63,846 nt of DNA, from positions 16,107,682-16,171,527 of the forward strand of contig CM119268.1 in NCBI GenBank assembly GCA_051294375.1, in the 5' to 3' direction. Below the pieces are notes generated by a model. The model saw nothing but the letters and a program-made list of their open reading frames with translations. It did not search any database and was not told the DNA's origin. The translations under genes and the position numbers were made by a program. Position 1 is the first letter of the stretch; every line of letters starts with the position of its first letter. Shown here one piece after another: positions 285 to 55,190 of this stretch. Origin of the DNA: Paraspadella gotoi (Eukaryota > Animalia > Chaetognatha).

Positions 285-4760
<4,476 letters not shown>

Positions 4761-6697: not shown

Positions 6698-6891
6698 TGT
6701 GGCGGTATATTCACACCGCCTCACGTCCACCATCGTTCAGCCAATACCATCAACAGTCCTAACGACTTCCTTGAGCGAGATCGTCCTTGGGTAACCGCGC
6801 CAGTGACAGGAGGCGTCACTGAGGATCGGAAGCCCCCAAAGCCAACAGTGAGATGCCCCATCCCAATGGGCATCACAGGCAACCCGGCATA
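6698..6891 (+). mobile_element. Internally deleted solo LTR, family 1 (degenerate twister core 6775-6836)
   Basis: TGTGGCGGTATATTCACACCGCC start, ...GGCATA end, 4-bp TSD CAGA; lacks the 5' strand of P5. Confidence 0.85.
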
Positions 6892-10406: not shown

Positions 10407-11395
10407 CCTCTCTTCTCTCTCTCTTCTCTCTCTCTCTCTCCTCTCATCTCCTCTCTCTCATCCTAGGCGTCTCGCCTCATCATGATTTTCAAAGCTGAAG
10501 AATCGATCCGTTTTCTCTCTTCCGTTTCCGGCAGGGGCGCATGATTGGAGAGGACGCGCGCAGTCCATTAAAACGGAAACCATCCAAAGACGATCCGCGA
10601 GACTCGTTATCGGCTTTTTGACGATCACGTGGCTATCGTCGTTCATGTCGTTGTTTTCAGTCGTCGTTGTTGTCGTCGTCCTGCATCGTTGTCGTCGTCG
10701 TTGTTGTTGATATTTCGGCGTCATCCGTTAAATTTTTTGGGGGTAATTTTTTTTGTCATTTGTTAGAGATATAATGCAATCTTGATTTTGTACCAAAATT
10801 GAAAACTTCTTATTTTTTTCCGTTCCAAAATATTTTTGCGATAAGTAACACAAATATTATTATTTTTGGTTTGTTCGAAATTCAGACTCCTATCTATGAA
10901 ATTGGTAAACTCAATATAATTATCCATTCATTTAATAAATAAGACTAATCTTGCCCCTGACATTTGACAGGCTTTGGTGTTTAAGGCCTCCATCACTCTT
11001 ACAAGATAATTACATAGCAGGTCCCTGCAAGCTTTCAATCAGACTCCCAGAGTACCTGGCTTCCCTATCATGAAGTGGAAAATATTTTCAAAGAATGTTT
11101 CAATTGTATGAAAAGACCACTCCTTAAGTATTAGATCGGGGAATACTATTGTACTCCGCACTAGCATCAAATACAAGAAGCTGAATTTTATGAAATTGTA
11201 CAACCAATATAAAAATTATCCATTCATTTAATAAATAGCTATCTTGCCCCTAATCTTTCTGTATTCTTTTCTATAACTTAATGAAATTTCAATGGTCATC
11301 TGAGTTATCAATAACTGACCTCTTCATTGCTTGCGCTCTGTGATTTCGCCGTCTCAATATTCAACGTCACAGATTTGAGAGAAAATTAGTTTACT

Positions 11396-18371: not shown

Positions 18372-18626
18372 TGTGGCGGTATATTCACACCGCCTCACGT
18401 CCACCATCCGTCAGCCAAATCCATTGGCTCAGAGGGGGAACACACCATCCCAGGCGTAGTGTTCCATCCACAGTCCTAACGACTTCCCTCTGCGTTGGCA
18501 AAGCGAGACCGTCCTAGGGTAACCGCGCCAGTGACTGGAGGTGTCACTGAGGGTCGGAAGCCCCCAAAGCCAACAGTGAGATGCCCCATCCCAATGGGCA
18601 TCACAGACAACCCGGCTGTTGCCATA
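18372..18626 (+). mobile_element. Solo LTR, family 1, in the SLC37 intron after coding exon 1
   Basis: TGTGGC...GCCATA termini, 4-bp TSD TGAG on both sides, colinear with the LTRs at 37854-38615. Confidence 0.9.
18494..18574 (+). ncRNA. Putative twister ribozyme, type-P5 permutation with minimal P1
   Basis: P5 GUUGGC/GCCAAC; P2' GCGA-GA-T1' CCG; P1 UC(CUAG)GG; U^AA (18520/18521); P2 CCGC; T2 GC; P3 CAGUGAC/GUCACUG; A; P4 GGG/CCC with loop U-CGG-AA-GC. One C-A mismatch in P2. Confidence 0.75.
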
Positions 18627-37075: not shown

Positions 37076-37281
37076 GGTAAAAAAGTCAACTTTCTTCGTC
37101 ATAATTAGATTCTTGCTCAGGATTCACGACGCAGATGGCGAGAAAAAAGGAAGAAGGAATACATTAAAAAAAAAAGGAAGAAGCAAGCAGAAAAAAGGGG
37201 AAGAAAGGTTTCAATCAACAAAATTCCATTATAAAATGCGATAACTTCCCGTGAAATTCGTTCGCAAATAAAATAATCTAG

Positions 37282-37524
37282 TGTGGCGAATCCTAAATTT
37301 GCCTCCCGTATAGCTCTCTGAAAGAGAGCTCACACCATTGGCTCGGACAGCTAAGTCCTCGTTCGCCAACCGTGATTTCCGGGTTCAATCCCCTTGCGAT
37401 GTCTCCGGTTAAAGTGTGATGGTGTCGGCATAAACACGCCGGTGACATAGGGGTGTCTCGCTCAGGTCTAAAGCCCTGAGCGCCAGCTGTCGGGAGATGC
37501 CCGGGCATCACACATGTCGCCTCA
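37282..37524 (+). mobile_element. Solo LTR-like element, family 2
   Basis: TGTGGCGA...TCGCCTCA (TG...CA with short inverted termini); shares the 5' hairpin, CCATTGGCTC and GAGATGCCC..GGGCATCACA blocks with family 1; no clear TSD. Confidence 0.72.
37411..37482 (+). ncRNA. Putative twister ribozyme (family 2 LTR)
   Basis: AAA-P2' GUGU-GA-T1' UGG; P1 UG(UCGG)CA; U^AA (37431/37432); P2 ACAC; T2 GC; P3 GACAU/GUGUC; P4 CGCUCAGG/CCUGAGCG with loop U-CUA-AA-GC. All twister core nucleotides present. Confidence 0.8.
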
Positions 37525-38221
37525 TATTCATACTATAATTTTTGTTTTCAACGATTAATTGATAACCTTCTTCCCTAGCGTCGTTAGGCAATTAGTTAGA
37601 GAGATAACGAGTTTATTTACTTTTTGTTTTATTATTATTTTTTCGTTATAAACCTCAGATTTAACTAGAGAAAAAACTTTTTAAAAAAGGCGATCGGAAA
37701 TGCAGAGTCACGTTTCTTTCTTTTTTCCCCCCCCGTTTCAAGTTTACTCGCCCCCAATATCTTTTCTTTCTTTTTCTTTAATTCGCTTTGTAATTATTTT
37801 TTCCACTCTATTTTCGCTCGTGTTTGTTAACATGTTATGGGCAAATTGGGCATTATGGCAACAGCCGGGTTGCCTGTGAATGCCTTGGGATGGTGCATCT
37901 CACTGTTTGAGCTTTGGGGGCTTCCCGACCCTCAGTGACGCCTCAGTCAGCTGGCTGGCGGTTACCCTAGGACGTCTCGCTTTGCCAACGGCAGAGGAAG
38001 GTCGTTGAGACCTGGGATGGAACAACTAACGCTTGGATGGGTGTTCCCCCTCTGAGCCGAATGGATTTGGCCTAAGGACGGTGGACGTGATGGCAGTGTG
38101 AATATACCGCCAAGGATTCCCCGGGCCAAGACATCGACTCAGCGTTCCTCAAGCCTGAAGAGTGTGTCTGACAAGACTTGTTAACCATAGTGGGAGAGAG
38201 AGAGGAGCGCTGAGTTTGTGG

Positions 38222-38316
38222 GGCATAGGCGTTTGTCGTAGCGTACCCCAGGGGCATAGGCATTTGTCGTAGCGTTACCGAAGTCGGCAGGGCATAGGCG
38301 TTGTCGTAGCGTACCC
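38222..38316. repeat. Three copies of a 25-27 bp unit inside the miniature LTR element
   Basis: ggcataggc(g/a)tttgtcgtagcgtacc repeated 3 times with short spacers. Confidence 0.9.
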
Positions 38317-38318
38317 TG

Positions 38319-38351
38319 GAAGGTTGCTGTGTTCGATAGTAGGGCTCACCA
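38319..38351 (-). promoter_or_regulatory. Extended primer-binding site complementary to the 3' part of a tRNA-Trp-like tRNA
   Basis: Plus strand reads gaaggttgctgtgttcgatagtagggctcacca, compared with the recalled metazoan tRNA-Trp 3' part gaaggttgcgtgttc...cggggtca-cca; includes the post-transcriptional CCA. Confidence 0.72.
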
Positions 38352-38730
38352 CTGTATGGGCAACAGCCGGTGTTGCCTGTGATGCCATGTGGGATGGGGC
38401 ATCTCACTATTGGCTTTGGGGCTTACGACCCTCAGTTGACGCCTCCAGTCACTGCGCGGTTGTTTACCTAGGACGGTCTCGCTTTGCCAACGCAGAGGGA
38501 AGTCGTGAGGACTGGTGGATGGAACACTTACGCTTGGGATGGTGTGTTCCCCCTCTGAGCCAATGATTTGGCTGAAGGACGGTGGACGTGAGGCAGTGGT
38601 GAATATACCCGCACAGCATAATCTTTATATTATTTCTTAACTTTCGCTCGATGACCTAAATTTACATTGTAAGTACAGTCTTTGAAAAAAAAAATAATTG
38701 TTGTTTCGAGCGCCAACCACATTATTTGAA

Positions 38731-43279: not shown

Positions 43280-44859
43280 TTGTTCATCGTCGTGTCGGGC
43301 TCTACGGTTAACTCTTTATCGCCAGCATTCGTTTTCTCTTTTGACACATCAGACGATGAGAGAGCTTTCTTGCTGTCAGCATTACTGAGTTTTTTGGCTC
43401 ATTTTAGACCTAAATAAAGAGATTTCATTTTTTGTCGGTTATTCTTTCACTTTTTAACTCGCAACAGAAATTCGTTCTGGCGACAAAGTATCTTGTATGG
43501 AAATGGTGCAACCATTATAAAAATTAGTCTGGCCTCGCTTCCGTATCAAGGAACAGATATTATTTTTTAACAGTTAATTAGATTGAAGTATGAGCTCTGC
43601 AGGACCTACTATGTCATTATCTTGTAAGAATGAGGGAGGCTTTAACCCACCAACGCCTGTCCAAAGTCAGGGGCAAGATAGCTTATTTATTAATTGAATG
43701 GATAATTTTTATATTGTAAATTCATACAAAAATAAATAAAAAGAGCCGACGGTGATGAAATTGATACTTCATGATTTTCGGCATCAAAATGCAGACTTTT
43801 TTTAACCGAAGCTCAAAACCCGTGAGTATTTTTCCCATCCACCGATCACACTCGGCTTTTGTCCGCCATCTAGCGTTAATCGTCGTTTTTGTCGCCCGAG
43901 TCGTCGTCTGTCGTCGTCGTCGCGATGGTCGTCGTTCCTCTCGCCGTTATGGTTTTTATGGCTCAATTTCTTGAAAAATGGTCAGTCCTCGGGCAACATT
44001 TCACGCATTGCGCGACAACGCTCTCGCCCGGGGAAAGGTGTGGCGCTCGCAGGAGTGGAAGCCCATATTTTTCTTTCTCCCGCTTATATTTTTTCACGCG
44101 GGAAGAGGAGGAGGAAGAGGAGGAGGAAGAGGAGATTAAAGGAAGAGAAGAAACAAGGAAACGGTTTTCATCTTTCGCGTCGGAAAAGCGACGGTTCCTG
44201 GCGGCAATTTCGAATTACGACGCTTTCAAAGGTTGCTAGGAAACGAGATAAGAAGTTGGATGGAGGCCTTAAACCACCAAAGCCTGTCCAAAGTCGGCAA
44301 GATAGCTTATCTATTGAATGAATGGTTTATTTTTTATATTGGTTTTACCAATTTCATGTAATATCGAATAGTACAACGTTAGTAGAGCCACTATGAAAAA
44401 TATCCATTCGTTCAATATAAGTACAAGCTATCTCGCCTCTTAACTTTGGACATGCTATACGGATCAGATATTCCAAAAACTCCTGAATCATTCAATCAGA
44501 ATTTCTAACAATTTGGTAATTTATTTATCTATATTTATTTATTAGTTTTCACTCTTAATTCTAAAAATAGCGACTCCTTCGATCGTCATAATATGCGGAA
44601 TCGTTGAACTGACTGTTTTATATTAAAAAAAACCCAATGAATAAAAGTAAAATATTCAACAATGAAATTCAAAGATAAAAAGAGCATCTTCGTAATTGAG
44701 CATCTGTGTTGTCGCTCATCTCTTCCATTTCGCTTCGCCTTCACCTTCATCCTCGATTTCCCTCATTGACTCCTCCGTTCACTTTTCCCCTTCTCACCTA
44801 ATTCACCGACGTTATCAAGCGATAAAAAATTTATGGAGGAAAATCCACTCTCCGTTTCC

Positions 44860-52605: not shown

Positions 52606-55190
52606 ACTCTCTCTCTCTTTTCCCCGCTTCCACAGTTAATCAATTTTTTCGCACCCATTACAACGTAATTTATTACTACGTAATTTATTACCTCGCGGCT
52701 TTTTTTTCGTGATTATCTGGGAAAACGGGAGAAGGAAGGAGCGGGAGAAGCGCGATACATTTTCATTAGCGCCTTTAATAATCACCATCAGCTTCGCAAT
52801 TCTCTCCCTTTTCTCTTTCCCCGTCTTTTCTTGGAAAAAAAGATTTCGGGAGATGTTTGTCTTATCGGAAAACCGAAAGTGCACGACTTGATAATAATAT
52901 TTTTTATTCGTATTCAAAAGTCGCAAGGTTATAATCACAATATCATAGATACGCAAAGTTTCTTTAGTTATACATGTATCGTATGACTAATCTTATAATT
53001 TTATAATTGACGCGCCAAAAAAAAAAGCCACTATTGCACTTCGTGTCACACGCATTGCCATTTTCGTGCCATTTTTTCTTGCCGTCCCTTCTCCAACATT
53101 TTCCTCTAGTTCCAAAACTCTTTCGCCTCCTTGAATTTTTGATGGGGACTTTCAAACTTCATTAAGCGTCGTCGTCTTCGCTGGAAAGGCATTCGTCCTG
53201 CGAGGGATTACTTCTTCTTCGTCGTCGTTTTCGTCGTCGTCGTCGACGTCGTCTGCCTCGTCGTCGTCTGCCCACGGCAACGTGCTCTTCATCTTTTCCT
53301 CCATTCGATTTCATTCGTTATCGTCATTGTCAAGGATCATCGCTTTTCATTCGATATTCATTAGGCCCTTTTGTAATTATCCTCATTATTGTTTGAATTA
53401 ATGATTGGTTTTGTTTTTTTTTATCTTTTTGTTACTCCAAAATTCGTTTTACTATTTTCATTATTGACACATCTAATTTCTGTTGTTTCTGTTGCCAAAT
53501 TTAGTCATTAAAAATTATTTTAACTTCACAAAAAAATATCCCTTGCCGTCGTTATATTTTTTTGTTGTTGTCGTTATCACCCGCGATGTCTTCGTCGTCG
53601 TCGTCATCGTCGTCGTCGTTGTGTTCATCGTCGTCGTCGGGCTCTACGGTTAACTCTTTATCGCCAGCATTCGTTTTCTCTTTTGACACATCAGACGATG
53701 AGAGAGCTTTCTTGCTGTCAGCATTACTTAGTTTTTTGGCTCATTTTAGACCTAAATAAAGAGATTTCATTTTTTGTCGGTTATTCTTTCACTTTTTAAC
53801 TCGCAACAGAAATTCGTTCTGGCGACAAAGTATCTTGTATGGAAATGGTGCAACCATTATAAAAATTAGTCTGGCCTCGCTTCCCTATCAAGGAACAGAT
53901 ATTATTTTTTAACAGTTTTAATTAGATTGAAGTAATGAAAGCTTGCAGGGACCTACTATGTCATTATCTTGTAAGAATGAGGGAGGCTTTAACCCACCAA
54001 CGCCTGTCCAAAGTCAGGGGCAAGATAGCTTATTTATTAATTGAATGGATAATTTTTATATTGTACCAATTTCATACAAAAATAAATAAAAAGAGCCGAC
54101 GGTGATGAAATTGATACTTCATGATTTTCGGCATCAAAATGCAGACTTTTTTTAACGAAGCTCGAAACCCGTGAGTATTTTTCCCATCCACCGATCACAC
54201 TCGGCTTTTGTCCGCCATCGAGCGTTAATCGTCGTTTTTGTCGCCCGTAGTCGTCGTCTTCGTCGCGATGGTCGTCGTTCCTCTCGCCGTTATGGTTTTT
54301 ATGGCTTAATTTCTTGAAAAATGGTCAGTCCTCGGGCAACATTTCACGCATTGCGCGACAACGCTCTTCGCCCGGGGAAAGGTGTGGCGCTCGCAGGAGT
54401 GGAAGCCCATATTTTCTTTCTCCCGCTTATATTTTTTCACGCGGGAAGAGGAGGAGGAAGAGGAGGAGGAAGAGGAGATTAAAGGAAGAGAAGAAACAAG
54501 GAAACGGTTTTCATCTTTCGCGTCGGAAAAGCGACGGTTCCTGGCGGCAATTTCGAATTACGACGCTTTCAAAGGTTGCTAGGAAACGAGATAAGAAGTT
54601 GGATGGAGGCCTTAAACCACCAAAGCCTGTCCAAAGTCGGCAAGATAGCTTATCTATTGAATGAATGGTTTATTTTTATATTGGTTTTACCAATTTCATG
54701 TAATATCGAATAGTACAACGTTAGTAGAGCCACTATGAAAAATATCCATTCGTACAAGCTTTCTCGCCTCTTAACTTTGGACATGCTATACGGATCAGAT
54801 ATTCCAAAAACTCCTGAATCATTCAATCAAGAATTTCTAACAATTTGGTAATTTATCTATCTATATTTATTTATTAGTTTTCACTCTTAATTCTAAAAAT
54901 AGCGACTCCTTCGATCGTCATAATATGCGGAATCGTTGAACTGACTGTTTTATATTAAAAAAAACCCAATGAATAAAAGTAAAATATTCAACAATGAAAT
55001 TCAAAGATAAAAGAGCATCTTCGTAATTGAGCATCTGTGTTGTCGCTCATCTCTTCCATTTCGCTTCGCCTTCACCTTCATCCTCGATTTCCCTCATTGA
55101 CTCCTCCGTTCACTTTTCCCCTTCTCACCTAATTCACCGACGTTATCAAGCGATAAAAAATTTATGGAGGAAAATTCCACTCTCGTTTCC

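Follow-up and report, generated by a model that had tools for sequence, protein, structure and literature searches.

An abundant second family of LTRs with a predicted twister ribozyme fold in a genomic stretch of Paraspadella gotoi

To our knowledge, the biological roles of twister ribozymes are mostly unknown. The P1 and P5 permutation types of the fold are defined in PMC5408937, and the catalytic G of its GA and catalytic A of its UAA in PMC5408937 and PMC8501958. The published retroelement context of twisters, according to the sections of PMC8501958 used here, is the RTE/Perere LINEs; crustaceans and other invertebrates are named as twister hosts in the portions of PMC11662667 at hand, where the context is not given. 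A different ribozyme, the type III hammerhead, resides in the plant LTR retrozymes, and in one of these the order of promoter, then ribozyme, within the LTR gives a unit-length RNA (PMC9695139). In the pages available, a 2026 preprint still treats LTR retrozymes as mainly plant elements that carry type III hammerheads, and a review hints at unpublished insect elements with type III hammerheads. The third close system, the Helenus TRIMs/TRIMp3 (Kojima 2024, PMC10886601, in part), comprises elements of <1 kb with two LTRs, a TGG-type primer-binding site (PBS), and an A box (TRGCY..GG) and a B box (GGTTC) in the LTR.

The window analyzed here, a 63,846-nt stretch of P. gotoi DNA, holds LTRs that resemble all three systems. 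It is AT rich and microsatellite rich, with N gaps and near-duplicated blocks. The multi-kb blocks (40.8-46.4 kb versus 51.5-56.7 kb and 0.4-4.7 kb versus 8.8-12.7 kb) show many 1-nt indels and kb-long runs of T or A, and they likely reflect noisy long-read assembly or haplotype duplication. Another interspersed repeat of ∼300 to 370 bp is present in several copies and both orientations (2256-3229, 10893-11251, 43593-43716, and 53936-54080).

The LTRs fall into two families, and a search of the window with nhmmer and both families recovered only the five known copies. Family 2 is represented by a solo LTR of 243 bases on the forward strand (37282..37524), which begins with TG and ends with CA as present here. 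We set its 5′ end at 37282 because 54 contigs of run X1 exit there into unlike flanks (agreement 0.42). Its 3′ end differs from those of other family-2 copies, which terminate like family 1; X1 contig 7 matches 37498-37620 with no differences, so the odd end is genomic. No 4-bp duplication surrounds this insert (CTAG on the left; TATT or TTCA on the right). It lies 330 bp from a two-LTR element of family 1, tail to tail (37282-38615).

To gauge the wider family, contigs of four runs (X1, X5, X7, and X8) were aligned to 37200-37620. X1 is possibly from the window's own sample, and two other studies supplied X5 and X8. That X8 is RNA is only a guess, and its cover pattern (repeat covered, flank not) is that of the DNA runs X5 and X6. 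The family-2 LTR was matched by 1148 contigs in X1, 34 in X5, 4 in X7, and 107 in X8; X7 was left out of the comparisons, as its contigs differ by C>T/G>A changes only. Summed depth in X1 was 817 to 227283 across the LTR versus ∼80 on the 3′ flank, and the 5′ flank had no contig cover in any run. Summed depth is not copy number, as the tool itself warns, and these values fit a high-copy family, being compatible with hundreds to thousands of copies. Family 1 is even more abundant, with 2816 contigs in X1, a peak summed depth of 979200 versus 38 to 105 on the flank, and cover of its internal region in all four runs. The original prediction had raised single-copy status as a possibility for family 2; the number of matching X1 contigs answers that it is not single copy, and we rejected a single-copy relic as an account of 37282-37524.

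Within the family-2 LTR, a predicted twister fold occupies 37404..37487 on the forward strand, as a type-P5 permutation with a tetraloop-closed P1 and a P3 hairpin. From 5′ to 3′, AAA (37411-13) is followed by the 3′ strand of P2 (GUGU, 37414-17, pairing with ACAC at 37434-37), GA, the 3′ strand of pseudoknot T1 (UGG, 37420-22, pairing with CUA at 37468-70), P1 with its tetraloop (UG-UCGG-CA, 37423-30), UAA (37431-33), the 5′ strand of P2, and GC (37438-39), which forms pseudoknot T2 with GC at 37473-74. P3 comes next, then P4 (CAGG, 37463-66, pairing with CCUG at 37475-78), U, the 5′ strand of T1, AA, GC, the 3′ strand of P4, and the closing P5. Every segment is where the original prediction had placed it, all 15 core pairs (stems P1, P2, and P4 plus pseudoknots T1 and T2) are formed, and both the catalytic G and the catalytic A are present; the cut is predicted between U37431 and A37432. 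The pair probability of P2 and P4 is 0.93 to 1.0. The outer parts are poorer: in the family-1 register, this copy forms 4 of 7 pairs in P3 and 4 of 6 in P5.

The order P2′-GA-T1′-P1-UAA-P2-GC...P4-U-T1-AAGC-P4′, with a P5 end, is that of the type-P5 twister (RF02684). The present fold departs from RF02684 in having a 7-bp P3 hairpin, as in the twister-P1 model, in place of a 5-nt linker, in its P1 of 2 bp plus tetraloop, and in a score under the gathering threshold. The original prediction had considered a background-level score as a possible outcome, which did not come about: Twister-P5 ranked first among 4227 Rfam models for a 98-nt family-2 core, although weakly, at 16.4 bits (E = 0.13) versus a gathering score of 37.6, with P3 scored as an insertion. 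For the family-1 motif, the top model was twister-P1, which does include P3 (16.5 bits, E = 0.22, gathering score 67.2). The low scores are likely explained by the absence from both models of a P5 permutation joined to P3. At gathering thresholds, Rfam gave no match and no hammerhead in the whole window, and by E-value on 1.6 kb, it gave a single chance miRNA match, neither twister nor hammerhead.

Folding statistics point in two directions. The whole LTR folds with a z score of −3.2, and none of 200 shuffles was as good, whereas the twister core by itself (z = −0.99) folds no better than shuffles, and pseudoknot-blind nearest-neighbour folding favours other structures by 13 kcal/mol in family 2 and 9 kcal/mol in family 1. 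A descriptor scan of both window strands found three skeletons; those at 18500 and 37411 also form P2, T1, and P4. When the window was simulated 400 times with an order-3 Markov model, 142 skeletons arose and none was fully paired; the descriptor was fixed after sight of the sequence, yet it accords with the Rfam twister consensus lines. A chance match was therefore rejected for the twister fold.

The paired skeleton at 18500 belongs to family 1, whose counterpart twister (18494-18574) forms 13 of the 15 core pairs. Half of the paired core letters (15/30) differ between the families, and the unpaired conserved letters are the same at 11 of 11 positions. Five core pairs (P1-2, P2-3, T1-2, T1-3, and P4-2) changed on both sides and still pair; a sixth two-sided change lies in P5, outside the 15-pair core. 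Under simple substitution nulls, the probability that all eight changed core pairs would still pair is 0.001 to 0.011, a figure from one comparison of two lineages and not a phylogenetic one. The compensatory changes in the core helices that the original prediction had described are thus borne out, and together with the simulations they uphold its claim that selection on the RNA structure, rather than chance, maintains the fold. Its description of the two LTRs as largely unalignable is true only for blastn, in which a family-2 query found no family-1 copy. A global alignment has 155 identical columns out of 270 (57%) and scores 147 versus 56 ± 9.5 (maximum, 81) in 300 shuffles, and the cut site falls at LTR position 149 in family 1 and 150 in family 2. 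On this alignment, the two families are colinear sisters. Pairs were counted by coordinates because a MAFFT alignment of five sequences was out of register for family 2 at T1 and P4.

Most family-2 copies differ from 37282-37524 at ∼40 places among those listed. Most aligned contigs have C at 37469 (84671 of 86496 summed depth in X1, 89 contigs), so T1 is all Watson-Crick in most copies; the T1 pairing CUA/UGG given in the original prediction is real in the window copy but is not the family norm, CUA being peculiar to that copy. A at 37441, together with loose-end rows, gives most copies a P3 of 7 bp, as in family 1, and their letters at 37404 and 37406 give a full P5. Because most copies restore P3, P5, a Watson-Crick T1, and a family-1-like end, the solo LTR at 37282-37524 is either worn or a member of a minor subfamily; its core is intact, and no target duplication flanks it. 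Its segment 37398-37409 is unlike that of most copies and pairs with 37488-37500 as a substitute outer stem, possibly a product of inverted-repeat templating. Two further contigs, high in depth and 676 nt (X5) and 1998 nt (X8) long, match only the twister core at 38395-38501, with 14 other letters, among them a linked pair of changes (38439 and 38449) by which an A-U pair of P3 becomes G-C; these are a third variant, perhaps in a longer element.

Likeness to a twister is not cleavage, and the helices could be kept for a non-catalytic role, such as a packaging or dimerisation signal, or be a decayed relic. The sub-threshold Rfam scores, the 2-bp P1, and the damaged P3 and P5 of the window copy are what such a reading would lead one to expect. 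We nevertheless think it very improbable, as the fold retains both pseudoknots and every unpaired letter of the active site. Moreover, according to the part of PMC11662667 consulted, which concerns type-P1 twisters only, ∼94% of assayed natural twisters cleaved, and flaws in P1, P3, and P5 and G·U pairs in the pseudoknots were the best tolerated. Since natural type-P1 twisters tolerate such flaws, even the 37282-37524 copy may still cut.

Upstream of the twister, the LTRs of both families contain motifs resembling a Pol III promoter, with A and B boxes ∼40 nt apart. In family 2, the A-box-like motif (TGGCT..GG type) is at 37339..37350 and the B-box-like motif (GGTTC type) at 37382..37391, 43 nt past the start of the A box, both on the forward strand; the B box is weaker in family 1. 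The motif definitions are those of section 3.5 of PMC10886601, and the pattern was fitted after the fact. There was no ARAGORN tRNA call in the LTRs and no cloverleaf, and the resemblance lies in the boxes and their spacing. Neither this promoter nor a link of the two families to Helenus TRIMs figured in the original prediction.

Element structure is visible in family 1; no two-LTR copy, PBS, or polypurine tract of family 2 was seen in the window. A miniature element of 762 bp on the reverse strand (37854..38615) has LTRs at ∼38355-38615 and 37854-38113, flanked by the duplication ATGC. A PBS-like site starting with TGG lies 3 nt after the 5′ LTR (38342..38351, reverse strand), and the internal region (38114..38354, reverse strand) is ∼240 nt long and noncoding, with a short stretch of purines ahead of the 3′ LTR. 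Three tandem ∼30-nt repeats at 38220-38320 in this region are very deep in all four runs. The twister motif occupies the same place in both LTRs, 501 nt apart. Many 1-nt indels of this element are absent from the contigs, which show an intact motif where the window's copy is noisy. We rejected the 16% difference between its LTRs as a measure of age because the contigs are without most of the window's extra bases. Two solo LTRs complete the family in the window, both on the forward strand: one at 18372..18626 with an intact twister (A box at 18425, weaker B box at 18461, duplication TGAG) and one at 6698..6891 with an internal deletion, a damaged twister, and the 4-bp duplication CAGA. Duplications of 4 bp thus flank all three family-1 insertions, the length seen in plant LTR retrozymes and in animal Helenus (PMC10886601, in part). 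No helper element was detected in the window, where 15 open reading frames gave one weak low-complexity match.

The reading that we somewhat favor, weighing all of these observations, takes 37282-37524 as a worn solo LTR from a high-copy family of noncoding miniature elements with a predicted Pol III promoter and a likely self-cleaving twister; their unit RNA would probably become a circle that a helper copies. Pol III would start near LTR position +50, and twister cleavage at +150 of both LTRs would free, from a two-LTR copy, an RNA of unit length (501 nt for the noisy family-1 copy in the window). This cut-to-cut RNA would be without a terminal repeat, and ordinary strand transfer therefore cannot work; a circle would solve the problem. 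The unit RNA would probably be circularised, as proposed for plant retrozymes in the relevant part of PMC4918200, and the circle would be copied by a helper retrotransposon, likely of Gypsy type, as suggested by the 4-bp duplication and the TGG-type PBS. Solo LTRs like 37282-37524 would stem from LTR-LTR recombination or short cDNAs. Against this reading, we count the nested folds that are 9 to 13 kcal/mol lower, the weak family-1 B box, the short purine tract, the lack of a two-LTR family-2 copy, and the weak fold of the family-1 circle (z = −1.69, with 1 of 60 shuffles as good), which falls below the strong self-pairing reported for retrozyme circles.

Some of these points would also fit an active twister that cuts mainly in the 3′ LTR as a terminator. 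The product would be a linear Pol III transcript that starts at about LTR +50, ends at the second cut, and bears a terminal repeat (R) of ∼100 nt; it could follow the ordinary LTR route with no circle. Besides the weak circle fold, competing folds exist, the upstream context differs between the two LTRs, and the element lacks a T4 run, whereas most of the published Helenus LTRs inspected by eye show a run of T shortly past box B. The absence of a T4 terminator from the family-1 element and from either LTR also speaks for the favored reading, though weakly, as chance alone predicts about one such run. The motif is present in full in both LTRs and is complete ∼55 nt past the cut, so a 3′-biased terminator needs the 5′ copy to be suppressed by some switch; in the part of PMC9695139 concerned, moreover, the LTR ribozyme of a plant retrozyme fully processed the primary transcript. 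We therefore give this alternative perhaps a modest chance, well below that of the circular unit RNA.

A true twister could also serve another role, with mobilisation independent of it: cutting host transcripts that pass through thousands of solo LTRs, freeing a short RNA made by Pol III, or self-damping. The window has three solo LTRs and one two-LTR element, and RTE 5′ ends are trimmed by twisters without circles, according to the portion of PMC8501958 used. Compensatory changes in two amplifying families point instead to selection on the element's own spread, and we judge such a role improbable.

Taken as circularising, helper-copied elements, these LTRs are best read as both an LTR retrozyme of an animal and a TRIM of the Helenus-like type, with a twister replacing the hammerhead. 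As far as the parts used of PMC4918200, PMC9695139, and PMC7761336 go, plant LTR retrozymes and these elements are alike in being noncoding, in carrying an LTR ribozyme downstream of a promoter, and in their PBS, 4-bp target duplication, and solo LTRs; a cut-to-cut RNA without a terminal repeat is a property of the former and is predicted for the latter. They differ in the ribozyme, in the tRNA-type A and B boxes and shorter length (∼760 bp) of these elements, and in a host that is animal-like. With Helenus, as portrayed in the available parts of PMC10886601, both families share the boxes, and family 1 also the size, two-LTR structure, PBS type, and 4-bp duplication (0/1 in family 2, whose 3′ end is altered), but they differ in the twister-bearing stretch of ∼135 nt that follows box B and in the lack of a cloverleaf or tRNA call. 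The Perere-3/RTE variants, as described in part of PMC8501958, also tie a twister to an animal retroelement; there, an autonomous LINE has a single P1-type copy at its 5′ end, and here P5-type copies lie inside the LTRs of a noncoding element.

Relatives were sought more widely. No twister skeleton was seen by eye in the Helenus consensus set of PMC10886601 (supplement parts 1 and 5-9 of 11), and none of the 14 AAGCCC places in the set, including a search of fungal parts 2-4, had one. Skeleton pattern scans gave 0 and 24 loci in metagenomes, 7 and 0 in viral contigs, and 5 in prokaryote genomes; none of these 36 passed a pairing test, and none is a related element. One sludge metagenome contig (L031, 1004-1045) has a compact Twister-P5-like motif without P3 (27.3 bits; 15 of the 24 loci were scanned with Rfam), and a Cloacimonadota genome (L035) has the same core letters. 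Two gall wasp sequences of the Helenus set (Helenus-2_SyJa-LTR and Helenus-2_SyUm-LTR; PMC10886601 DataS1) have, by eye, a type III hammerhead behind box B, with the core letters, three pairing stems, long loop-loop complementarity, and no T4 run. The main text of PMC10886601, in the part covered, is silent on this hammerhead and uses the word "ribozyme" once, in a reference. These two would be insect LTR retrozymes.

Our search, confined to open-access PMC and bioRxiv, turned up no paper that describes a twister in LTRs. Judged from its sequence, the second LTR family described here is high in copy number, has a genuine twister fold under selection, and joins retrozymes to Pol III TRIMs, and covariation turns what would be a lone twister-like LTR motif into a selected structure. 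That the P5-plus-P3 form is missed by Rfam thresholds even at very high copy number bears on how such twisters are found. A broader picture, plausible but leaning slightly to the doubtful side, is a genome-wide radiation of Pol III-TRIM LTR retrozymes, in which multiple families and thousands of copies would use circular RNA intermediates, as a repeatedly evolved replacement of the R region. Its slot behind a tRNA-type promoter would take either ribozyme: a twister here and a hammerhead in gall wasp Helenus-2. If the favored reading is true, LTR retrozymes would reach beyond plants and beyond hammerheads and be tied to Pol III TRIMs, and twisters would gain a concrete, testable job.
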